Shown piece after piece: positions 1 through 28,989 of a stretch of 29,602 bases of DNA; positions within the stretch are counted from its first letter, which is position 1; every line of letters begins with the position of its first letter. The position numbers and the translations under genes were made by a program. Location: positions 1-29,602 of the IMG/VR virus record IMGVR_UViG_2740892234_000018. One strand, written 5' to 3'. The notes under the pieces were generated by a model that saw only the letters and a program-made list of their open reading frames with translations, searched no databases and had not been told where the DNA came from. This DNA is from a virus. Its lineage: Duplodnaviria; Heunggongvirae; Uroviricota; Caudoviricetes.

Positions 1-1005
1 TTAATCCCCCGTGGACACTGCGTGGACACTCACGCCACCTTTCAGCGGATTAAGGGCCACCGCATCCTGCAGGTAATCCGGTGCAAAATGTGCATATGCC
101 ATTGTTTGCTGAATGGTTGCGTGGCCAAGAATCTTCTGAAGCGCAATAATGTTTCCTCCGTTCATCACAAAATGGCTGGCGAACGTATGCCGCAGCACAT
201 GTGCAGCCTGGCCTTTTGGCAAATCGGGCTTAACTCTTTTCAGCGCCAAGCAGAATTCCCGGTACTTCACCTCAAACAAGCCGCCTGTTTCTCTGGTTTT
301 GATCGCCTCACAAACTGCCTGCGAAATTGGCACTGTTCTCTTTCGGCCATTTTTGGTTTCAAGAAACGTTACACGGTTATGAACTATCTGTTCACCACGA
401 AGCTTACAAGCTTCACTCCAGCGCGCCCCCGTGCTTAAACACAAAAGCGCAACACGCCAGTAATCGCCCTCCAGTGTATCGAGCAATAGCGCCACTTCCT
501 TCTGGGACAGGAAAGCCATTTCTCGTGGAGATACATAAAGAATAGAAATTCCCCTTACCGGATGTTCTGCATCCCAGAGGCCTATTTTCTTCAGTACGGT
601 AAACATTCCGGATAACCGATTCATGTATCTGTTAGCAGATGACGGTTTCAATCCATCAGCTATCTTTTGAGAACGCCACGCGATAATTTTTAGCTTATCA
701 AGATCCACAGCCTGCATATCAGCGCCAAGCTCATTGATTATGTTGCGCAGTTGTTTTCGGTCTTCTTCCGCCTTACGCCTGTGCTGGCCGTGATACATCC
801 ACCACAACTCAAGCAAATCATTTAGCGTTCGACGATCACGGTAGCCCTGTATATATTCCCGCTTTTCAGCGTTCGCCATGATGTAGCGTTCAGTGGCCAC
901 CGCTACCGATTTTTTGTCAAATACCTTACGCACGCGCTTTCCCTTGCGTCCGTTCGGCCTGATGTCCAGCAAATAACGACCATCTTCGAGCTTCTTAATC
1001 GACAT
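1..1005 (-). CDS. int: Tyrosine integrase (P2 Int-like)
   Basis: ORF 1..1020; start chosen at MSIKKLEDGRY by similarity to recalled P2 Int N-terminus. Contains ARWSEA, HVLRHTFASH and AYAHFAPDYL, matching the tyrosine recombinase R..HxxR..Y catalytic pattern. Confidence 0.9.
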   Translation of the reverse strand: MSIKKLEDGRYLLDIRPNGRKGKRVRKVFDKKSVAVATERYIMANAEKREYIQGYRDRRTLNDLLELWWMYHGQHRRKAEEDRKQLRNIINELGADMQAVDLDKLKIIAWRSQKIADGLKPSSANRYMNRLSGMFTVLKKIGLWDAEHPVRGISILYVSPREMAFLSQKEVALLLDTLEGDYWRVALLCLSTGARWSEACKLRGEQIVHNRVTFLETKNGRKRTVPISQAVCEAIKTRETGGLFEVKYREFCLALKRVKPDLPKGQAAHVLRHTFASHFVMNGGNIIALQKILGHATIQQTMAYAHFAPDYLQDAVALNPLKGGVSVHAVSTGD

Positions 1006-1101
1006 TGCGAAGCCCTCCAATGAACCGCTCTACAATTTCTCCAGCCTCTTTCCAGCAATAATCAGACCAGACAAAAAGCAGGTCTAACCAGTTTTCTGGC
1101 C

Positions 1102-1422
1102 TCAGCGGGATAATTTTTGGATTGTTTCGGTTGAAACACGATCTCCCTCCGAATTGCAGGAACCATCAAGAGAGAGAGCCGGAGAAATTTGCCCAACCTC
1201 CGGCATCGTTTCATCTGTTGATAACCAATAAGCATATTTCTTAAATTTAGGGTGTTTCGTAACCTTAAGTAAGGCACCCTCTGTTACTTGCTTCCCCCTC
1301 ACCTCATAGTTAGTTACCGTCCCATAAGGCAGCCCAACACAATCCGCAAACTCCTGGCGGGTCATACCTTCTGCTTCACGAATCAGGCGAAATTTTTCAC
1401 CCATGCTTGACAAAGATGCCAT
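1102..1422 (-). CDS. C: Immunity repressor (P2 C-like, HTH)
   Basis: ORF 1102..1476. HTH segment MTRQEFADCVGLPYGTVTNYE; divergent from cox. Start taken at the internal ATG preceded by GGAGGA (about 106 aa, close to P2 C size). Exact start uncertain. Confidence 0.75.
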   Translation of the reverse strand: MASLSSMGEKFRLIREAEGMTRQEFADCVGLPYGTVTNYEVRGKQVTEGALLKVTKHPKFKKYAYWLSTDETMPEVGQISPALSLDGSCNSEGDRVSTETIQKLSR

Positions 1423-1535
1423 ATCGGGCATATCCTCCATCGCAACATGCCACATCGGGCATAAACATAAAAACACTCAAATAAGCCGATATAAGCCATT
1501 TTGAGCCATTCGAACGAATTAGGGAGATTACCACA
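1423..1535. promoter_or_regulatory. Divergent lysis-lysogeny switch region (Pe/Pc-like promoters and operators)
   Basis: 113-bp gap between divergent C and cox. Direct repeat AGCCATT-ttg-AGCCATT and an ATGCC...GGGCAT dyad are present; P2 C binds direct repeats. Confidence 0.5.
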
Positions 1536-1823
1536 ATGAGCGAATCAGAGCTTGGGGGCTTCATTCAGGTAGCACCATATCCACTTGAAGCGGTGCCATA
1601 TCAACTATTCGCCAAGATGATCGGCCGCAAGGAATCCACAGTCAGAACCATGATTGACGCAGCAAAGCTACCGACAATTGACTTTGTGAAACCAGGTTCA
1701 GTAAAGACGCGTGCATCAGAAAACTGGGTATATCTGCCAGCATTTAACGAAGGCATGCGCAAAGCGTTTTTTGAGCAACCGAAAGAACGCCGCGATGCAT
1801 GGTTGTTGTGGCTGGGGCTTTAG
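1536..1823 (+). CDS. cox: Cox-like excisionase / switch regulator
   Basis: 95 aa; AVPYQLFAKMIGRKESTVRTMID...WVYLPAFNEG...WLLWLGL resembles recalled P2 Cox. SD GGGAGA 8 nt upstream. Confidence 0.8.
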   Translation: MSESELGGFIQVAPYPLEAVPYQLFAKMIGRKESTVRTMIDAAKLPTIDFVKPGSVKTRASENWVYLPAFNEGMRKAFFEQPKERRDAWLLWLGL

Positions 1824-4121: not shown

Positions 4122-4443
4122 GAAACCAGAACATGCACACACAAAAAAACCGCTTGCCATGCCGCAATCAGTCAGGTTACATTTCCGCTGCACCTCACAA
4201 AACGGGTGCCGGGTTTCGCAGCCTGCTGACTACACAAGCGCACAACCGCGCCAGCGGTTTTTTTGTGCGTACTGTATTGCCACGTTTTTTTCGCGTCAGA
4301 ATTATGGCGGGGCGTACGGGGCCGACTTCGGTCGGGCCGGGTTCTTGTGTAGCCGGTACTGCGAACCTCGTACGTCTCGCCACCCACAGTTTCGCAGCTC
4401 TGGATGGTGAGTTTTCACAACTTACTACACAAGGGGCCACACC
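4122..4443 (+). other. Structured non-coding region (possible small RNA or leader)
   Basis: No convincing CDS. Two TTGCCA-N17-(TTACAT / AATTAT) promoter-like motifs; a 76-nt GC-rich element 4306..4381 with a 13-bp closing stem and an inner CCGAC-UUCG-GUCGG hairpin; repeated GTTTCGCAGC and ACTACACAAG motifs. Confidence 0.3.
4244..4264 (+). terminator. Rho-independent terminator-like hairpin
   Basis: AACCGC-gcca-GCGGTT perfect 6-bp stem followed by a run of seven T. Confidence 0.6.
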
Positions 4444-4674
4444 ATGGCAAACCGCAAACCACACCGCGCTATCGCGGAGCGTCGTCACATCCAGACTGAA
4501 ATCAACCGCAGACTTTCCCGCGCATCACGCGTCGCGCAAATCATGCACATCAATATGCTGCATGAGCACAGCCACGCACTATCAAACATTTATTCCGCCT
4601 CTGTTTTCAGCTATCTGGCGGATGATCTGCACGAGCTTCAACAGCTCATCCAGCAGCAAAACAAACTCCATTAA
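4444..4674 (+). CDS. Hypothetical early-region protein
   Basis: 76 aa; SD AAGGGG about 7 nt upstream. Confidence 0.5.
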   Translation: MANRKPHRAIAERRHIQTEINRRLSRASRVAQIMHINMLHEHSHALSNIYSASVFSYLADDLHELQQLIQQQNKLH

Positions 4675-4746
4675 TTCCTGTTCCGGGCCTTTCCTGCACC
4701 TTGCGGCGGGAGGCCTTCGCACATCTGTAGTAAAGAGAATTGCAGC

Positions 4747-5136
4747 ATGATTGACCGTCACGACTTCGTAAAATGGGTGCGCACACAGGACACCCGTCTG
4801 GCCCCAAAACTTCAGGCAATGTTTGATTTTTATCTCCGTGCCCGCGCCAGCCGGGCACGCACCACAAAACCGGAGAACGCAGACACCCTTTATTTCACCG
4901 TGGACGACTGTTACCGCGTAGCCTTCACGCCACAAGGTCTGGCCCTGTACACCCTGACACCACACGGCGACTCCCTGCTGGCGTATTACAACTCCCCGGC
5001 CTCCGTATTTGCGGCAATGCTGGCGCATCGTACCGCTGGCGGGTGTGCCTCGCTGAGTGAATACACCACTGAATTTAACCGCCTTTCCGTCATCTTCTCG
5101 CAGGAGTGGCAGCGCGTGACGGGATACCAGCCATGA
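4747..5136 (+). CDS. Hypothetical early-region protein upstream of gene A
   Basis: 129 aa; stop overlaps the ATG of gene A (ATGA). Confidence 0.55.
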   Translation: MIDRHDFVKWVRTQDTRLAPKLQAMFDFYLRARASRARTTKPENADTLYFTVDDCYRVAFTPQGLALYTLTPHGDSLLAYYNSPASVFAAMLAHRTAGGCASLSEYTTEFNRLSVIFSQEWQRVTGYQP

Positions 5137-7973
5137 GTGAGTTTGCATGGAGCTGGAATGAACCGCAGCCAGCTATTGATCCGGACGACTTCGCGAACTT
5201 CAGCCAGTTGCCAAAAACCGGACTGCAACGCGCCATTCGTTACTACTATGAGGCGGACAAAAAGGCTCAGGAAGAACAGGATGCGAAGGAAGAAGCCTTT
5301 TTCGCACAATCCGCCATGGGTAAAAAACTCATGGCATCCCTTGAGGAAGCCGGGCAACGCGAAAAACTGATAAAAAACATCATCAGTAAGCGCCAGGAAA
5401 TAAAGCAAGACCCGGTGGCCTGCGCCTTTGCCGAACTGAAGGCACTTCCCGTTTATCTGCGAGACCCCCTGAGCCGCCGCCTCTCTTTTTTACGTAAGAA
5501 GCAGGAATCTGACCGCCAGAAAGGAAAAAACGCCAGGCTGGCAGAACGCTATGCACAAGGAACCCTGCTCAAAATATTCAAACGTCTGAAACGCACTGAC
5601 GGACGCTGGCTGACACCGTGTTATTGCTCCCTTGCCGGACGCGAACGCCTGGACGATTTGCTTTACCTGCCGCAGCTCAACAAACACCAGATACAGACGC
5701 TGGCCACCATGACGGCGGCGATGTTCAGCAGCACTTTTGAAACACTCTGCGATAACTTTGGCGCGACCGATGGCGAGCTGACCATGAAAATTGCGCTGAA
5801 GGCGTATCAGATGCTGGCCCGCATGGCGTTACATCTGCACACCATGCCGCCGCATTACGAAGCACTGAGAACGGACAAAGACCGGAAGAACGCACCGAAT
5901 ACGGAGCTGCTGCCGGGTGCCATCCTTCGCCTGACCTGTGCGGAATGGTGGAAACACAAACTGTGGCTTTTACGTTGCGAGTGGCGGGAAGAACAACTCC
6001 GTGCCGCCTGTCTGGTTTCCAGAAAAACATCACCCTATCTGAGCCAGGACGCGTTAAGCGAGTTTCGCGCACAGCGCGAGAAAACACGCGATTTTCTGAA
6101 AAGTTTCATGCTGGAAAATGAAGACGGGTTCACGATTGATCTCGAGACGGTGTATTACGCGGGAGTAAGTAACCCGGTTCACCGTAAGGCAGAAATGATG
6201 GCCACCATGAAGGGACTGGAACTTCTGGCCGAAGCCCGTGGCGACAGAGCGGTGTTTCTGACTGTCACCTGCCCGTCAAAATACCACGCAACAACGGAGA
6301 ACGGTCATCCGAACCCCAAATGGAACGGGGCCACCATGCGCGACTCCAGCGATTACCTGGTTAACACGTTTTTTGCGGCGGTCCGCAAAAAACTGAACCG
6401 CGACGGTCTGCGCTGGTATGGCATCCGCACGGTGGAGCCTCACCATGACGGCACTGTGCACTGGCATATGATGGTCTTTGCACATCCGGACGAGATTGAA
6501 ACCATCGTGTCCCACGTCTGCGATATTGCCATTCAGGAAGACCGCCACGAGCTGGGCGATGACATAACTCCGCGTTTTAAGGCGGAGTACGTAGACGGCT
6601 CAAAAGGCACACCAACCAGCTACATCGCCACCTACATCGGAAAGAACCTGGACAGCCGCGCCGTGGATGGCATCGACCCGAAAACGGGCAAGCCACGCGT
6701 TGACCACGAAACCGGAAAATCAATGGCCGAGAGCGTGGAACGCGCCATCGGCTGGGCGCGCCTTCACCGGGTCCGCCAGTTCCAGTTCTTTGGTATCCCC
6801 TCCCGTCAGGTGTGGCGTGAACTGCGCCGCCTTGCCAGCCAGATGGCACGCAACCCGGAAGGCCCGCAACGGCTGAAGGATGACGCAATGGACGCGGTAC
6901 TCGCTGCCGCTGATGCCGGATGTTTTGCCACCTACATTGAGAAACAGGGTGGCGTACTTGTTCCACGCAAAGACTACCTGATTCGCACCGCCTACGACCT
7001 CGCAGATGAGCTGAACGATTACGGTGAACAGAGCGTACAGATTTACGGGATCTGGTCGCCGCTCATTGGGGAGTCTTCCCGCGTATGCACGCATCCGGAT
7101 AACTGGAAGCTGGTAAGACGCAAACCGGAAGCGGAAGACAGCGCCCGCGAAAATGGTTTTGACCTTCAGGGCGGCCCTGCCGCCCCTTGGACTCGTGGCA
7201 ATAACTGTCCCCGTGTACAGGAAACAGACAACAACGGGACAGAACAGCCGGAAGAACGACCAACATCGTGGCTGCAGCTCCCTGACGGCGTTGAAGTGAA
7301 CGAATGGATGCGCTCACTGAAACGACACGAACGCCGGGCGCTGATGCGTTCGCTTCGTGACAAACAGGCAAAAAACAGCAGCGATGAAATGCAGAGCTGG
7401 ACACAGAGCCGCAAACAGCCGCGGCCTTTGCCTGATAACCACGAGTTACTCGCTAAAGAATGGCGGGAGTCTGCTGAATCTCTCGGCCTGCATATCGGTG
7501 AACAGCAGATGCAGCACCTGTTACGGGGCGGCAGTCTGTACGTTGACGGCAGCATCATTGCACCGCAGGGATTTGAAATTGTACGCAAACCGGATACCCG
7601 CCCGGACAGCCGAATCACGCAGCTCTGGCAACGCCTGAGCCGTAATCACGGCGTAAGCAGCACGGAGATCCGCCATAACCCGGTCGCCAGCTATCTGGAA
7701 CAGCTAGGGGCATCAGACCCCGAAGCCGCCGCACGCCTGGCATCCACACTTCAGCAGGACCAGAACACCATGAAAACCCCCGTTACCGTGCTTTCTGACA
7801 TGCTGCGCGCCATCCGTGACGCAGAGCACGCACAGAGAATCAGTGAAACCACTGAACGCGCCCGCCGCAAAGCAGACCTGCTGCGGAGTGGCCTGACCAG
7901 TGGAAACAAAAAACAGACAGAAACGGGATTCACAAATCCCGTAAATGAGCAAAAAACGCGCCAAAAAACATGA
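5133..7973 (+). CDS. A: Rolling-circle replication initiator (P2 gpA family, HUH endonuclease)
   Basis: HUH motif VHWHMMVF and catalytic tyrosine pair in SYIATYIGKN (Y-x-x-x-Y). Start taken at ATG 5133 rather than the track's GTG 5106. 946 aa. Confidence 0.9.
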   Translation: MSEFAWSWNEPQPAIDPDDFANFSQLPKTGLQRAIRYYYEADKKAQEEQDAKEEAFFAQSAMGKKLMASLEEAGQREKLIKNIISKRQEIKQDPVACAFAELKALPVYLRDPLSRRLSFLRKKQESDRQKGKNARLAERYAQGTLLKIFKRLKRTDGRWLTPCYCSLAGRERLDDLLYLPQLNKHQIQTLATMTAAMFSSTFETLCDNFGATDGELTMKIALKAYQMLARMALHLHTMPPHYEALRTDKDRKNAPNTELLPGAILRLTCAEWWKHKLWLLRCEWREEQLRAACLVSRKTSPYLSQDALSEFRAQREKTRDFLKSFMLENEDGFTIDLETVYYAGVSNPVHRKAEMMATMKGLELLAEARGDRAVFLTVTCPSKYHATTENGHPNPKWNGATMRDSSDYLVNTFFAAVRKKLNRDGLRWYGIRTVEPHHDGTVHWHMMVFAHPDEIETIVSHVCDIAIQEDRHELGDDITPRFKAEYVDGSKGTPTSYIATYIGKNLDSRAVDGIDPKTGKPRVDHETGKSMAESVERAIGWARLHRVRQFQFFGIPSRQVWRELRRLASQMARNPEGPQRLKDDAMDAVLAAADAGCFATYIEKQGGVLVPRKDYLIRTAYDLADELNDYGEQSVQIYGIWSPLIGESSRVCTHPDNWKLVRRKPEAEDSARENGFDLQGGPAAPWTRGNNCPRVQETDNNGTEQPEERPTSWLQLPDGVEVNEWMRSLKRHERRALMRSLRDKQAKNSSDEMQSWTQSRKQPRPLPDNHELLAKEWRESAESLGLHIGEQQMQHLLRGGSLYVDGSIIAPQGFEIVRKPDTRPDSRITQLWQRLSRNHGVSSTEIRHNPVASYLEQLGASDPEAAARLASTLQQDQNTMKTPVTVLSDMLRAIRDAEHAQRISETTERARRKADLLRSGLTSGNKKQTETGFTNPVNEQKTRQKT

Positions 7974-8049: not shown

Positions 8050-9009
8050 ATGAAAATTTACATCGACGACGGCTCCACCAACATCAAGCTGGCATGGACT
8101 GAGAACGGCGAACGCCGCAACGCCATCAGCCCGAACAGCTTCAAGTCGGAATGGTCTGCGCCGTTCGGTGGCTCGCAGCCTGCGAACTACATGCTTGATG
8201 GCGTGCGCTATGGTTTTGATCCGGTCAGCGATCGCTTTGTCCAGACGACCGACACGCAATACCAGTACAGCGATGTGAATGTAATCGCCATTCACCACGC
8301 GCTGGTCAAATCAGGCATCACACCACAGGAGGTGGATGTGGTTGTCACCCTGCCACTGAGCGAATATTTCGACACAAACGCACAGCCGGACATGGCCAAC
8401 ATCAACCGCAAAAAAGCGAACGTTATGCGCCCGGTGGAGTACCAGAACGGTGAGGCATTCACTATCCGTAACGTGCGGGTTATGCCTGAATCCATTCCGG
8501 CTGGCTTTAAAGCACTGGCTGACATGAGTCCGTTTGAATCCCTGCTGATTGTGGATTTAGGCGGAACCACGCTGGATGTGGCAAAGGTTCAGGGACAACT
8601 GGCAGGTATCAGCCAGGTGTTTTGCGATCCACACGTAGGCGTTTCCCTGATGGCCGATGCCGTACTGTCGGTGATGGCCACTAACGGTATGCGTACCAGT
8701 CACCACATCGCCAATACCATTATCGAACATCGCCATGATGAAGCCTGGCTGCGCCAGCACATCCACAATGACGCGCATTACAACAGCCTGATGGCGGTTA
8801 TTCGTGAAAAGGAAGAAACACTGAAACAACGCGTGATCCGCGCGCTGGCGGTTTTTTCGGGTTACGGGCGGGTGATGGTTGTCGGTGGAGGGGCGGAGAT
8901 TGTGGCACCCGCTATCCGCGAAGCCTGCGGAGTTAATGCGACTTTCATCGCAGACGGGGTGCCACAGTTTGCTCTGGTTAATGGGCTGTACGCAATGGAC
9001 AAGGAGTAA
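8050..9009 (+). CDS. parM: ParM/StbA-family actin-like ATPase
   Basis: MKIYIDDGSTNIKLAW N-terminus plus SPNSF, YSDVNV, HHAL, MPESIPAG, DLGGTTLD, GGGAE and LVNG blocks, as in recalled plasmid R1 ParM. SD AAGGA upstream. Confidence 0.85.
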   Translation: MKIYIDDGSTNIKLAWTENGERRNAISPNSFKSEWSAPFGGSQPANYMLDGVRYGFDPVSDRFVQTTDTQYQYSDVNVIAIHHALVKSGITPQEVDVVVTLPLSEYFDTNAQPDMANINRKKANVMRPVEYQNGEAFTIRNVRVMPESIPAGFKALADMSPFESLLIVDLGGTTLDVAKVQGQLAGISQVFCDPHVGVSLMADAVLSVMATNGMRTSHHIANTIIEHRHDEAWLRQHIHNDAHYNSLMAVIREKEETLKQRVIRALAVFSGYGRVMVVGGGAEIVAPAIREACGVNATFIADGVPQFALVNGLYAMDKE

Positions 9010-24604: not shown

Positions 24605-27580
24605 CAGAACTGCACAATCCAGCTGAAAGCAAAACGTAACAGCACCACGGTGGTGGTGAACACGCTGGCCTCAGAAAATCCGGATGAAGCCGGGCGTTAC
24701 AGCATGGACGTTGAGTACGGTCAGTACAGCGTTATTCTGTTGGTGGAGGGATTCCCGCCGTCACATGCCGGGACCATCACCGTGTATGAAGATTCTCAAC
24801 CGGGGACGCTGAATGATTTTCTCGGTGCCATGACGGAGGATGATGCCCGTCCGGAGGCATTGCGACGTTTTGAACTGATGGTGGAAGAGGTGGCGCGTAA
24901 CGCGTCCGCGGTGGCACAGAACACGGCAGCCGCGAAGAAGTCAGCCAGTGATGCCAGCACATCAGCCCGTGAGGCGGCAACCCATGCGGCTGATGCTGCG
25001 GACTCAGCACGCGCAGCCAGCACGTCAGCCGGACAGGCCGCGTCGTCGGCTCAGTCAGCGTCTTCCAGCGCAGGAACGGCATCAACAAAGGCCACTGAAG
25101 CATCAAAAAGTGCTGCCGCTGCAGAGTCCTCAAAAAGCGCGGCGGCCACCAGTGCCGGTGCGGCAAAAACGTCAGAAACGAATGCTGCAGCGTCACAACA
25201 ATCAGCAGCCACTTCTGCATCCACCGCGACCACGAAAGCGTCAGAAGCTGCCACCTCAGCCCGGGATGCGTCGGCTTCAAAAGAGGCGGCAAAATCATCA
25301 GAAACGAGCGCAGCCTCGAGCGCCAGTAGTTCCGCTTCCTCGGCAACGGCGGCAGGCAATTCCGCGAAAGCGGCAAAAACGTCCGAGACGAACGCTAAGT
25401 CTTCTGAAACGGCAGCGGAACAGAGTGCCTCCGCAGCAGCAGACTCAAAAACAGCGGCTGCATCATCTGCCAGCGCCGCGTCAACAAGTGCCGGGCAGGC
25501 CTCAGCCAGTGCCACCGCTGCCGGAAAGTCGGCAGAAAGTGCCGCATCATCCGCTTCAACAGCCACAACGAAGGCTGGCGAAGCCACTGAACAGGCCAGC
25601 GCAGCAGCGAGTTCTGCTTCCGCAGCGAAGACATCCGAAACGAACGCGAAAGCGTCGGAAACCAGCGCAGAATCCTCAAAAACGGCTGCCGCATCGTCCG
25701 CCAGTTCGGCGGCGTCATCGGCCTCATCTGCGTCTGCTTCAAAAGATGAGGCGACCAGACAGGCGTCAGCAGCGAAGGGCAGCGCCACGACGGCATCCAC
25801 GAAGGCGACAGAGGCAGCTGGCAGTGCGACGGCGGCAGCACAGAGCAAAAGTACAGCAGAATCCGCGGCAACGCGCGCCGAGACAGCAGCAAAACGGGCA
25901 GAGGATATTGCATCCGCCGTGGCGCTTGAGGATGCGAGCACGACGAAAAAGGGGATAGTACAGCTCAGCAGTGCGATCGACAGCACTTCCGAGTCACTGG
26001 CGGCAACGCCAAAAGCCGTTAAGGCCGCGTATGACCTGGCTAACGGGAAATACACCGCACAGGATGCAACGACAGCACAGAAAGGGATAATCCAGCTAAG
26101 CAGCGCGACCAACAGCACGTCTGAAACGCTGGCGGCAACGCCAAAGGCAGTAAAAGCAGCCAATGACAATGCTGAGAAACGTCTGCAGAAAGATCAGAAC
26201 GGTGCGGATATCCCTGGCAAAGACACCTTTACGAAAAATATTGGTGCCTGCCGTGCCTTCGGTGGGTCAGTAAGCACAACAACAGGAAACTGGACGACTG
26301 CACAGTTTATCGAGTGGCTGGATTCTCAGGGAGCATTTAACCATCCATACTGGATGTGCAAGGGTTCCTGGTCTTATGGCAATAATAAAATCATTACTGA
26401 TACTGGCTGCGGTAATATTCATCTCGCCGGAGCTGTCATTGAAGTAATGGGGATAAAGTCAGCGATGACGATCCGCATTACCACTCCGACCACATCCAGC
26501 GGTGGCGGAACAACCAACGCCCAGTTTACCTATATTAATCACGGAACAGATTATTCACCTGGCTGGCGAAGGGACTATAACTCCAGAAATAAGCCAACGG
26601 CATCAGAGATCGGGGCGCTACCGTCAGGTGGAACAGCAGTATCATCAGTTAATCTGGCTTCAAAAGGTCGGGTAGCCGCGCTGACAGACAATACGCAGGG
26701 GGCAGCAGGTCTTGAGTTATACGAGGTGTATAACAACGGATATCCAACAACGTATGGAAATATCATTCACCTGAAAGGGATGACAGCCGTTGGCGAAGGT
26801 GAGTTACTCATCGGCTGGAGTGGTACAAGCGGTGCTCATGCTCCGGCATTTATTCGTTCACGACGGGATACGACCGACGCAAACTGGTCGCCGTGGGCGC
26901 AGCTTTACACCTCGGCTCATCCTCCTGCAGAGTTTTATCCAGTCGGTGCACCAATCCCGTGGCCATCAGATACCGTTCCGTCTGGTTATGCCCTGATGCA
27001 GGGGCAGACTTTTGACAAATCTGCATACCCGAAACTTGCAGCCGCTTATCCGTCAGGCCTGATCCCTGATATGCGTAGCTGGACGATTAAGGGCAAACCT
27101 GCCAGTGGTCGGGCCGTATTGTCTCAGGAACAGGACGGCATTAAATCGCACACCCACAGCGCCAGCGCATCCAGTACGGATTTGGGGACGAAAACCACAT
27201 CGTCGTTTGATTACGGCACTAAATCCACGAATAACATCGGGGCGCATACGCACAGTGTGAGCGGTACAGCCGCAAGTGCTGGAAACCATACTCATAGTGT
27301 CACAGGCGCATCAGCAGTCAGCCAGTGGTCACAAAATGGGTCAGTACATAAGGTAGTGTCTGCGGCCAGTGTGAATACAAGTGCTGCAGGAGCGCACACT
27401 CATAGTGTCAGCGGCACAGCCGCATCTGCAGGTGCACACGCACATACTGTCGGTATTGGTGCTCATACGCACTCGGTTGCGATTGGCTCACATGGACACA
27501 CCATCACCGTTAACGCTGCTGGTAACGCGGAAAACACCGTCAAAAACATCGCATTTAACTATATTGTGAGGCTTGCATAA
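24605..27580 (+). CDS. stf: Side tail fibre protein (lambdoid Stf-like), 5'-partial
   Basis: Begins in frame at ...[19 protein letters not shown]; long Ala/Ser-rich region; two repeats of the same type as in H; His-rich tip ending NYIVRLA. Closely resembles recalled phage lambda Stf. Confidence 0.85.
25950..26175 (+). repeat. Two tandem repeat units of the fibre-type 44-aa repeat inside stf
   Basis: [44 protein letters not shown] followed by [30 protein letters not shown]. Confidence 0.7.
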
Positions 27581-28014
27581 TGGCATTCAGAATGAGTGAA
27601 CAACCACGGACCATAAAAATTTATAATCTGCTGGCCGGAACTAATGAATTTATTGGTGAAGGTGATGCATATATTCCGTCTCATACAGGTCTGCCAGCAA
27701 ACAGTACCGATATTGCACCGCCGGATATTCCGGCAGGCTTCGTGGCTGTTTTCAACAGTGATGAGGCATCGTGGCATCTCGTTGAAGACCATCGGGGTAA
27801 AACGGTTTATGACGTAGCGTCAGGGGACGCGTTATTTATTTCTGAACTCGGTCCGTTACCGGAAAATGTTACCTGGTTATCGCCGGAAGGGGAGTTTCAG
27901 AAGTGGAACGGCACAGCCTGGGTGAAAGATGCAGAAGCAGAAAAACTATTCCGGATCCGGGAGGCGGAAGAAACAAAAAACAGCCTGATGCAGGTAGCCA
28001 GTGAGCATATTGCG
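27580..28014 (+). CDS. tfa: Tail fibre assembly protein (lambdoid Tfa-like), 3'-truncated by gap
   Basis: [33 protein letters not shown]... ATG overlaps the stf stop; runs into the second N run. Confidence 0.85.
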
Positions 28015-28024
28015 NNNNNNNNNN
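28015..28024. other. Run of 10 N (assembly gap)
   Basis: Ten N characters; about 120 nt before and after the gap are near-identical but not identical. Confidence 0.95.
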
Positions 28025-28025
28025 G

Positions 28026-28301
28026 TCGCCGGATGGAGAGTGTCAGAAGTGGAACGGCACATCCTGGGTGAAAGATGCAGAAGCAGAAAAACTGTTTCGG
28101 GTACAGGAGGCAGAAGAAACAAAAAACAGCCTGATGCAGGTAGCCAGTGAGCATATTGCGCCACTTCAGGATGCTGTAGATCTGGAAATCGCAACGGAGG
28201 AAGAAACCTCATTGCTGGAAGCCTGGAAAAAGTATCGGGTGTTGCTGAACCGTGTTGATACATCAACTGCACAGGATATTGAATGGCCAGCACTGCCGTA
28301 G
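28026..28301 (+). CDS. tfa: Tail fibre assembly protein, 3' fragment after gap
   Basis: In-frame continuation ...[72 protein letters not shown]... to a stop at 28301. Confidence 0.75.
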
Positions 28302-28398: not shown

Positions 28399-28989
28399 TT
28401 ATATGTCAGGTGTCTGAAGTTTTGCTTTGGCTCTTAAAATGGTTTGCCGCGAGGTTTTGAATTCCCGGGCAATGGCACTTATACTTACACCTGACTTAAT
28501 CCGTTCGAATACCACCTGTTTCTGTTCTTCATTTAACACAGGTGGTCGACCAAAACGTTTCCCTGCGCCCCGGGCTCTTACTATCCCGGAATGAGTGCGT
28601 TCAAGTAAAAGGTCTCGTTCAAATTCAGCGACTGCTGAAATTACTTGCATCATCATTTTTCCTGTTGGACTGGTCAGGTCAATGCCCCCCAATGCTAAGC
28701 AATGCACTCTGATACCTGTTTCGGTCAGTTGTTCCACTGTTTTCCTGATATCCATTGCATTACAACCAAGGCGATCCAGTTTTGTCACAATCAATTGATC
28801 ACCACATTTCAGGCGAGCAAGCAACCGGTTAAAACCAGGACGCTCACTGGTTGCTGCTGAGCCGCTAATGTGTTCTTCGATTATTTGCTGAGGTTTGATT
28901 TTAAAACCTGCACTTTCGATTTCCCGGCGTTGATTTTCGGTGGTCTGATCCAGCGTTGATATCCGACAGTAAGCAAAAATTCGAGACAT
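28399..28989 (-). CDS. Serine recombinase (resolvase/invertase family)
   Basis: 196 aa; N-terminal catalytic block YCRISTLDQ (active-site Ser), [10 protein letters not shown], and a C-terminal HTH ([19 protein letters not shown]). Confidence 0.85.

Follow-up and report, generated by a model that had tools for sequence, protein, structure and literature searches.

The DNA analysed here, hereafter the window, is a stretch of 29,602 nucleotides corresponding to positions 1 to 29,602 of the IMG/VR virus record IMGVR_UViG_2740892234_000018, and the element in question is a GC-rich region at 4122-4443, which a preliminary description had regarded as either a small RNA or a protein-binding array. 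An Rfam scan of the whole window at curated thresholds found two RNA families in this region, both on the plus strand. The first is an IsrK/seqA-like RNA (4190..4264), which matches RF01394 with 64.1 bits (threshold 50, E 9.6e-12) over model positions 1-77 of 77. The second is a C4/CI-like antisense RNA (4300..4387), which matches RF01695 with 83.2 bits (threshold 45, E 3.4e-15) over model positions 1-87 of 87 and begins 36 nt past the terminator of the IsrK-like RNA, on the same strand. The small RNA alternative is borne out by these two curated families, matched over their full models, and by a structure held by compensatory changes.

Promoter scanning located an internal sigma-70-type promoter-like site at 4154..4183 (plus strand), which consists of TTGCCA, a spacer of 17-18 nt and TTACAT or TACATT, and sets the predicted transcription start at about 4190. 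The site is unchanged in phage P88 and in Citrobacter phage Shae_phiSM despite their different upstream genes. Furthermore, its hexamers line up in all eight reference modules including P4, which shows TTGCCT ... GATATAGT upstream of its seqA/IsrK match. The canonical terminator described earlier was recovered by the terminator scan as an intrinsic terminator with a hairpin and a T-run (4244..4264, plus strand). At the level of pattern, therefore, a putative IsrK promoter and a rho-independent terminator are followed by the C4-like RNA. Both TTGCCA-N17 motifs of the preliminary description are present. However, the second one (TTGCCA-N17-AATTAT, 4277..4305, plus strand), also matched by the scan, is probably no promoter, because its -35 is not conserved in P88 (TCGCCA), in the lambdoid modules or in P4, and its -10 hexamer, AATTAT, coincides with the 5' leader that is conserved in the C4-like RNA. 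It was rejected as a promoter of the C4-like RNA, as a start there would also delete the 5' strand of the closing stem.

A 21-nt inverted repeat (4137..4157 and 4250..4270, 90% complementary) was also found around these elements. Read in reverse complement, the U-tract and 3' half of the IsrK terminator give the A-run and CCGC found just 5' of the internal promoter. This repeat is kept in the P88-type modules only, neither in lambdoid modules nor in P4, and marks the left edge of the conserved cassette; it may be the scar of a past recombination or offer Pe transcripts an alternative pairing. A role as an anti-terminator of Pe transcripts was not adopted, given its restriction to P88-type modules and the kinetically unfavourable pairing with the 3' half of the terminator.

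For the 76-nt segment 4306..4381, the predicted folding energy is -45.5 kcal/mol (z = -4.3), a value equalled by none of 200 shuffled sequences. For the C4-like RNA, z ranges between -4.3 and -4.5, and the minus strand folds much worse. The fold and the inner CCGAC-UUCG-GUCGG hairpin agree with what had been described for this segment; the closing stem, however, is about 16-17 bp instead of 13 bp, and encloses the UUCG hairpin and a recognition hairpin. The consensus of eight sequences contains 27 pairs, of which none is broken and 11 are changed on both sides. Since Lys8385Vzw shows a GAAA hairpin in place of the UUCG hairpin, the latter acts as a scaffold. The closing stem is acceptor-like, with ACC directly 3' of it, and both CI and C4 have been described as substrates of RNase P (PMC5499578). 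The IsrK-like RNA is composed of two 5' hairpins, a single-stranded linker and the terminator, and shows little covariation across the eight sequences.

The same Rfam pair, with the same order and spacing, was found in P88, in Shae_phiSM and in four phages of the lambdoid/Stx/ST64B type. It was also found in the satellite P4, at the positions of the seqA and CI RNAs. IsrK and C4 are structural homologues of P4 seqA and CI according to Barquist et al. (PMC3632133), and the element therefore belongs to a kind already described: it is not novel in itself but the catalogued IsrK-C4 (seqA-CI) system of P4. This immunity system is also present in lambdoid prophages, P1, P7 and N15 (PMC3632133).

The recurring motifs noted in the region were all recovered, and all of them lie at this locus. 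The 9-mer CTACACAAG shows two direct copies (4230 and 4425) and one inverted copy (4344), with no others in the 29.6-kb window (0.16 expected), and the motif GTTTCGCAGC shows two copies (4213 and 4389; 0.15 expected). In the C4-like RNA, the inverted copy of the 9-mer forms the loop of the second hairpin (a', 4344..4352, CUUGUGUAG), and the sequence CUGCGAA (b', 4359..4365) lies in a single-stranded stretch 3' of this recognition hairpin. In the IsrK-like RNA, TTCGCAG (b1, 4215..4221) is located in the loop of hairpin 2 and the 9-mer (a1, 4230..4238) in the linker. Downstream of both RNAs, a seqC-like target region in the mRNA leader (4391..4436) holds b2 (4391..4397), which is the downstream target of b', and a2 (4425..4433), which overlaps the Shine-Dalgarno sequence AAGGGG (4431..4436) of the open reading frame (ORF) starting at 4444. 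All these sites are on the plus strand, and a2 abuts or overlaps the Shine-Dalgarno sequence in every aligned module. In the window, a' is complementary at 9/9 and b' at 7/7 positions to both the upstream and the downstream site pair. Predicted energies of the duplexes between the C4 loops and their targets are -14.3 and -11.0 kcal/mol for the downstream sites, and -15.0 and -13.9 kcal/mol for the sites of the IsrK-like RNA. In the predicted minimum-energy fold of the read-through transcript, IsrK is paired with C4 in cis.

Between 4140 and about 4750, a gap-free alignment of the window, P88 and Shae_phiSM shows a near-identical scaffold, although each carries its own motif set, and the sets change coherently at all three places. 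In the window, a' is CUUGUGUAG with two copies of the a target CUACACAAG, and b' is CUGCGAA with the b targets UUCGCAG. In P88, a' is CUGUAGUUG with two copies of CAACUACAG, and b' is GUGGAAA with UUUCCAC; in Shae_phiSM, a' is CUUUGGUUG with two copies of CAACCAAAG, and b' is GUUCCAA with UUGGAAC. The four lambdoid modules and P4 show the same loop-target behaviour. A search with a pattern of the C4 scaffold that left the loops free retrieved 131 further loci (11 from species genomes and 120 from IMG/VR), and the comparative set comprises 89 unique modules with 33 recognition types (a', b'). Because the retrieval pattern fixes part of the closing stem, covariation in this stem was judged on the eight-sequence set only. 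The a' loop was scored out of 9, with each G.U pair counted as half. Complementarity of b' is 7/7 to both sites in all 33 types, and a' reaches at least 8/9 in 88% of the types at the upstream site and in 94% at the downstream site, with only 3-6% of non-self loop-target combinations at these scores; the sets hold related sequences, and these counts are not independent events. Furthermore, the a and b types reassort independently. Judged from these comparisons, the three-way covariation is the signature of antisense specificity, as in P1 versus P7 and in seqA/seqB/seqC of P4.

The grouping of two direct and one inverted copy of the 9-mer with two copies of the 10-mer, all within 220 bp, is also what would be expected of DNA operators bound by a protein. 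Since the repeats show the covariation of antisense specificity, an operator or a protein-binding array is unnecessary to explain them. Moreover, the inverted copy falls exactly in the loop of a hairpin supported by covariation, the complement of the second motif is single-stranded, one copy overlaps the Shine-Dalgarno sequence, and no DNA-binding protein co-varies with the 33 types, whose a' and b' sequences reassort freely. Experiments on P1, P4 and Gifsy-1 have shown that the family works through RNA, and we regard operators as highly improbable.

Several further features of the recognition sites were observed. Often, a1 has T where a2 has C, and the pair formed with the C4 loop is then G.U instead of G-C (e.g. 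TCAATATAG versus TCAACATAG), which suggests that the a1 site borne by IsrK is a systematically weaker binder. In one IMG/VR locus with the recognition type of the window (L159:250..460), an extra hairpin, GCCGGA-UUCUUUGCUC-UCCGGU, is located just 5' of the normal recognition loop; it is possibly a two-loop C4 of dual specificity or a recombination intermediate. The P88-type b' (GUGGAAA; P88, L001:5174..5222) is exactly complementary to the b' most common in lambdoid modules (UUUCCAC; Stx2a_1447, L004:2643..2691) and is therefore identical to the lambdoid targets, which may be a coincidence or may permit cross-talk between co-resident prophages. With regard to cross-talk between helper and satellite, all 40 matches to the recognition type of the window, among the loci collected up to and including a dedicated IMG/VR scan, were in P88-type, epsilon-like contexts, with no sign of this type on another scaffold.

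Both RNA genes are traversed by a long ORF of 205 aa (4133..4750, plus strand), which we call the eta-like through-ORF. It starts 57 nt 5' of the internal transcription start, overlaps the following epsilon-like gene in the +1 frame of that gene, and at its end shares an ATGA with the start codon of the next gene, orf129. Pfam reports a Phage_ASH match at residues 16-109 (27 bits, cut-off 26), and several PHROG matches are labelled transcriptional regulators; BLASTP against the annotated P4 'cI' protein found no significant similarity. In all eight reference modules, P4 included, only the phase of the through-ORF is open from 5' of the IsrK start to past C4. Among the 89 unique modules it is open in 87 (other phases, 6 and 0), with an upstream ATG in 85 of these 87. 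Stop triplets number 338, 3 and 249 by phase across the module, and 20, 1 and 37 within the hypervariable recognition motifs. In the same way, the +1 frame of all 24 unique epsilon-like genes is stop-free, while the +2 frame contains one to five stops, and an ATGA overlap ends the long ORF in 23 of the 28 unique P88-type modules, whose next genes belong to at least six families.

An ordinary gene with a functional product ('Ash family protein' or 'transcriptional regulator') would account for the open frame, for the Pfam and PHROG matches and for the coding sequence (CDS) in RefSeq. However, the variable sites in 4133..4443 are distributed over the codon positions of this ORF as 31/31/28, without periodicity, and within the epsilon-like overlap its own second codon position varies the most. 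In addition, the variation is concentrated in RNA motifs that are complementary to each other, the segment matched by Phage_ASH coincides exactly with the two RNA genes, and a promoter-like site and an intrinsic terminator lie inside the ORF, which together make a functional product very improbable. The earlier statement that the region lacks a credible CDS thus stands as regards the substitutions, which are not of the coding type, but does not do justice to a frame that is conserved across the modules. Taken as a whole, the substitution pattern indicates that the amino acid sequence is not under selection, and the distribution of stops indicates that the frame is kept open. The ORF is probably a functional eta-like frame used to translate through the cassette. 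According to PMC10111431, which summarises Forti 1999, P4 has a constitutive promoter inside eta whose transcript is soon terminated through CI/seqA interactions, and full-length Eta, translated only from the upstream promoter and coupled to the preceding gene, prevents this termination.

The ORF starting at 4444 is an epsilon-like 'derepression' gene of 76 aa (4444..4674, plus strand), which matches Pfam PF25738 with 32.6 bits (cut-off 27) and shows 29% identity with P4 epsilon (E 6e-9). In 16 homologues of equal length, variable sites fall on codon positions 1, 2 and 3 as 27/25/45, which is a coding pattern. Epsilon of P4 is an anti-repressor that inactivates the C repressor of P2, and the gene of the window is a homologue of this anti-repressor and most likely the first gene gated by the RNA. 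It is followed by orf129 (4747..5136, plus strand; PHROG 3237, function unknown), which shows no similarity to P4 orf151, and by the gene of the replication initiator gpA (5133..7973, plus strand; Pfam Phage_GPA, 426.7 bits). ATGA overlaps, read directly from the sequence, join the long ORF stop to the orf129 start at 4747, and the orf129 stop to the gpA start at 5133. Among the downstream ORFs no match to the Ant or Icd families was found, only PF25738 and a PHROG of unknown function, and NCBIfam gave no match for any of four ORFs. The order is thus IsrK, C4, target, epsilon-like gene, small ORF and replication gene, and mirrors seqA, cI, seqC, epsilon, orf151, orf106 and alpha in P4, whose small ORFs are not related to orf129 by sequence. 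In the lambdoid modules the gated gene encodes a Rha-type anti-repressor of about 181-187 aa; because these modules gate Rha-type genes and the P88-type modules epsilon-like genes, the cassette appears to be a portable gate for anti-repressors.

Two observations concern the epsilon-like gene itself. The segment 4640..4729, which comprises the end of the gene and the 72-nt spacer before orf129, hardly varies among the window, P88, P884B11 and even Shae_phiSM, which has diverged elsewhere. Its conservation exceeds that of the epsilon-like coding region. A GGCCU...AGGCC hairpin that lacks a U-run lies within this segment, which could act as an additional RNA signal (e.g. a Rho site or a processing site) or reflect the constraint of overlapping frames. 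In the Serratia quinivorans locus L009 (module 4244..4292), the ORF past the downstream target starts in a lambdoid/P4-like manner (MATTPT...) and runs in frame into epsilon-like sequence (…LSVDCYRKLHRSNQ, compared with LSIEAYHKLNRASAV of P4 epsilon). This layout looks intermediate between the P4/lambdoid and the P88-type modules.

By its sequence, the window belongs to the P88-type P2-like prophages (genus Xuanwuvirus). It opens with an integrase gene (1..1020, minus strand), a C-type helix-turn-helix (HTH) repressor gene (1102..1476, minus strand) and cox (1536..1823), and continues with small early genes, the cassette, gpA and the late genes. Over its 100 C-terminal residues (1102..1404), the repressor has the same sequence as the one annotated in P884B11. 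Within the phage collection, close relatives of the epsilon-like gene of the window were found in Xuanwuvirus records only. The early regions of P2 and 186 gave no C4 or isrK match, even at E values up to 1, and the sole result of that scan was a sub-threshold match at a terminator; the remark that no such element is known in P2-type early operons is therefore fair, and true for P2 and 186. The literature search found no paper describing the cassette in P88-type phages. What is unusual is thus the location of the cassette in a P2-like early operon, without an RNA annotation in the databases.

We consider it likely that the region is a P4-type IsrK-C4 (seqA-CI-seqC) RNA immunity cassette in the early operon of a P88-type P2-like prophage. 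This reading draws on computed results, namely the anatomy, the homologies, a complementarity that covaries, a frame kept open across the modules, and the ATGA couplings. By homology with P4, P1 and Gifsy-1, constitutive firing of the promoter, RNA processing, Rho-dependent polarity and the function of the protein may be expected here as well. In a lysogen, Pe would be off and the internal promoter (4154..4183) constitutively on. Most of its transcripts would stop at 4264 and give the IsrK-like RNA, and those that read through would be processed, probably by RNase P, into a stable C4-like RNA. The C4-like RNA would pair with b2 and a2, mask the Shine-Dalgarno sequence and block translation of the epsilon-like gene, and the untranslated RNA would be terminated before orf129 and gpA. 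Because it carries the same target sites, the IsrK-like RNA could compete for the C4-like RNA; by titrating it, it would set a threshold. During lytic growth, with Pe active, ribosomes would traverse the cassette in the 4133 frame, override the terminator and the antisense control, and be passed through the two ATGA overlaps to orf129 and then to gpA. The replication gene would thus be a downstream cargo that needs read-through of the cassette to be expressed.

Some points weigh against this reading. The promoter, the terminator, the processing and the Rho-dependent polarity are assigned to this phage by analogy, the anti-repressor activity of the 76-aa protein by its 29% identity with P4 epsilon. 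The fold of the IsrK-like RNA alone is no better than that of shuffled sequences (z = -1.2). The conservation of the open frame was seen in related sequences, and the chance of a stop-free +1 frame per epsilon-like gene is not small (0.23 by synonymous resampling and 0.09 by codon permutation). Furthermore, the long ORF and the gene that follows the downstream site do not share a frame, unlike in P4 and the lambdoid modules, so the kil/eta logic of P4 would not be transferable unchanged. Finally, IsrK of Gifsy-1 is an activator and not a repressor, which makes the net sign of the control uncertain here.

This last point leads to an alternative in which activity of the Gifsy-1 type is dominant, with the IsrK-like RNA as a positive regulator and the cassette mainly as an induction trigger. 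By binding either the C4-like RNA or the read-through transcript, the short RNA would turn on translation of the anti-repressor. In Gifsy-1 (isrK, orf45/STnc1160, anrP), the IsrK RNA has its own promoter and a leaky terminator with read-through; next come a structured RNA, released by processing and complementary to IsrK, and then the anti-repressor gene (PMC4825925). Salmonella IsrK binds Hfq and activates the read-through mRNA in trans; its over-expression raises anrP translation more than 100-fold, and it is required for Gifsy-1 induction (PMC4825925). The IsrK-like RNA of the window likewise holds both C4-complementary sites, with predicted duplexes of -15.0 and -13.9 kcal/mol and the minimum-energy pairing in cis, and the C-to-T change between a1 and a2 suggests a tuned affinity. 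However, such a trigger is compatible with immunity, the two readings being opposite views of one three-RNA circuit, and Barquist et al. (PMC3632133) report P4 seqA as necessary for establishing immunity. We hold dominance of the activating role to be rather unlikely.

As an immunity cassette, the element resembles that of P4 (PLE, seqA, cI/CI RNA and seqC in eta/kil, then epsilon and alpha) in its two Rfam families and their order, in the promoter-like site at the same aligned position, and in loop and single-strand motifs complementary to an upstream and a downstream site pair. It also shares with P4 a long ORF that runs in the same phase from 5' of the internal promoter through the RNAs, an epsilon homologue as the next gene and a replication gene further down. 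However, the carrier is a complete P2-like phage, i.e. of the helper type, whereas P4 is a satellite that parasitises such phages. The window lacks the 70-nt insert between the terminator and C4, its gap between C4 and the epsilon gene is 57 nt instead of about 245 nt, and its replication protein is gpA instead of alpha. The first gene past the downstream site is kil in P4, in frame with eta according to the literature, but in the window it is the epsilon-like gene: there is no kil at the end of the long ORF, and the ATG at 4444 lies outside the 4133 frame. Instead, the long ORF extends across the epsilon-like gene in its 3' half and is coupled by ATGA to orf129, which is followed by gpA. The through-ORF lacks a Bro, Rha or kil-type C-terminal part.

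The lambdoid modules (Stx2 phages, mEp460 and ST64B) show 67-73% identity with the window over 4190..4384. Their Rha-type cargo is typically in frame, unlike the epsilon-type cargo of the window, and they are located between cII and the replication genes instead of in a P2-type early operon. The recognition sequences of the lambdoid modules and of Gifsy-1 are also unlike those of the window. The C4 of P1 and P7 are the type members of the Rfam C4 family. Citron and Schuster are said to have found in 1990 that this antisense RNA is processed from the operon's own transcript, that its sites a1/b1 lie upstream and a2/b2 downstream, with the downstream site covering the ribosome-binding site of the first gene, and that the outcome is a polar loss of the anti-repressor. 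The specificities of P1 and P7 reportedly differ through co-varying loops and targets. The window shows the full-model C4 score, a long stem enclosing two hairpins, and site pairs of which the downstream one is at the ribosome-binding site. Nevertheless, in contrast to immI (c4, icd, ant), it contains no icd or ant homologue and gates an epsilon-like protein. The comparison with P1/P7 draws on the literature, including Barquist et al. The departures of the window from its relatives are variations of architecture and not of principle.

A near match to 4130..4445 (at least 80% covered) was found in 1152 of 5426 complete Escherichia coli genomes (about 21%); the O157:H7 example is a P2-like remnant adjoining yecA. 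Such copies in degraded P2-like remnants would fit an inert inherited relic in the window too. Nevertheless, the window contains int, C, cox, gpA and the late genes, the parts of the cassette are intact, with perfect complementarity (9/9 and 7/7, twice each), and the frame is open with its ATGA couplings preserved, so that a relic is very improbable. Among the matches listed, the E. coli copies are annotated as 'hypothetical protein', 'ash family protein', 'derepression protein' (the neighbouring gene) or nothing, and none has an RNA gene annotated. In the same way, existing labels of the locus are a 205-aa 'transcriptional regulator', an 'ash family protein', a minus-strand hypothetical protein or nothing, with a CDS in RefSeq.

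A wrong or missing annotation can thus be replaced by a defined RNA regulatory cassette, which has a close match in about one fifth of the complete E. coli genomes, including O157:H7. The cassette suggests that some P2-like phages may have a bipartite immunity composed of the C repressor and an anti-repressor gated by RNA, comparable to that of P1 and P22. Such an immunity, and the CI/epsilon toolkit shared by helper-type phages and P4-type satellites, bear both on the induction of P2-like prophages and on helper-satellite conflict; P2 itself counts as non-inducible. The comparative data also provide a clean natural example of three-way switching of RNA specificity, and of a reading frame conserved for being translated and not for its product. 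More tentatively, and with the odds somewhat against it, we propose that the P88-type phages, which are exploited by P4 satellites, carry a second RNA layer of immunity borrowed from or shared with these satellites. A C4/CI-like RNA made from a constitutive internal promoter would silence the epsilon-type anti-repressor, and the IsrK/C4 balance would offer an induction route independent of the repressor and possibly of SOS. The out-of-register translate-through frame would let Pe transcripts ignore immunity, and the at least 33 reassorting types would form a second specificity code beside the C repressor.

Finally, two features outside the cassette were observed. Directly 3' of gpA, a gene at 8050..9009 (plus strand), followed by a further ORF, encodes a ParM-type actin-like segregation protein with StbA_N and ParM_N domains. 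P88 and the O157:H7 remnant show the same gene together with a partitioning/stability protein, which hints that a plasmid state, as in P4, might be open to P88-type phages. At 28069..28267 (plus strand), the window shows a full-length Rfam match to IS009 (RF02111; 224.6 bits, threshold 117), flanked by a tail-fibre assembly gene (27580..28071, Caudo_TAP) and a serine DNA invertase gene (28399..28989, minus strand; Resolvase and HTH_7). Because this setting resembles an invertible tail-fibre segment, the IS009 'sRNA' (small RNA) family may really belong to an invertible tail-fibre DNA switch.

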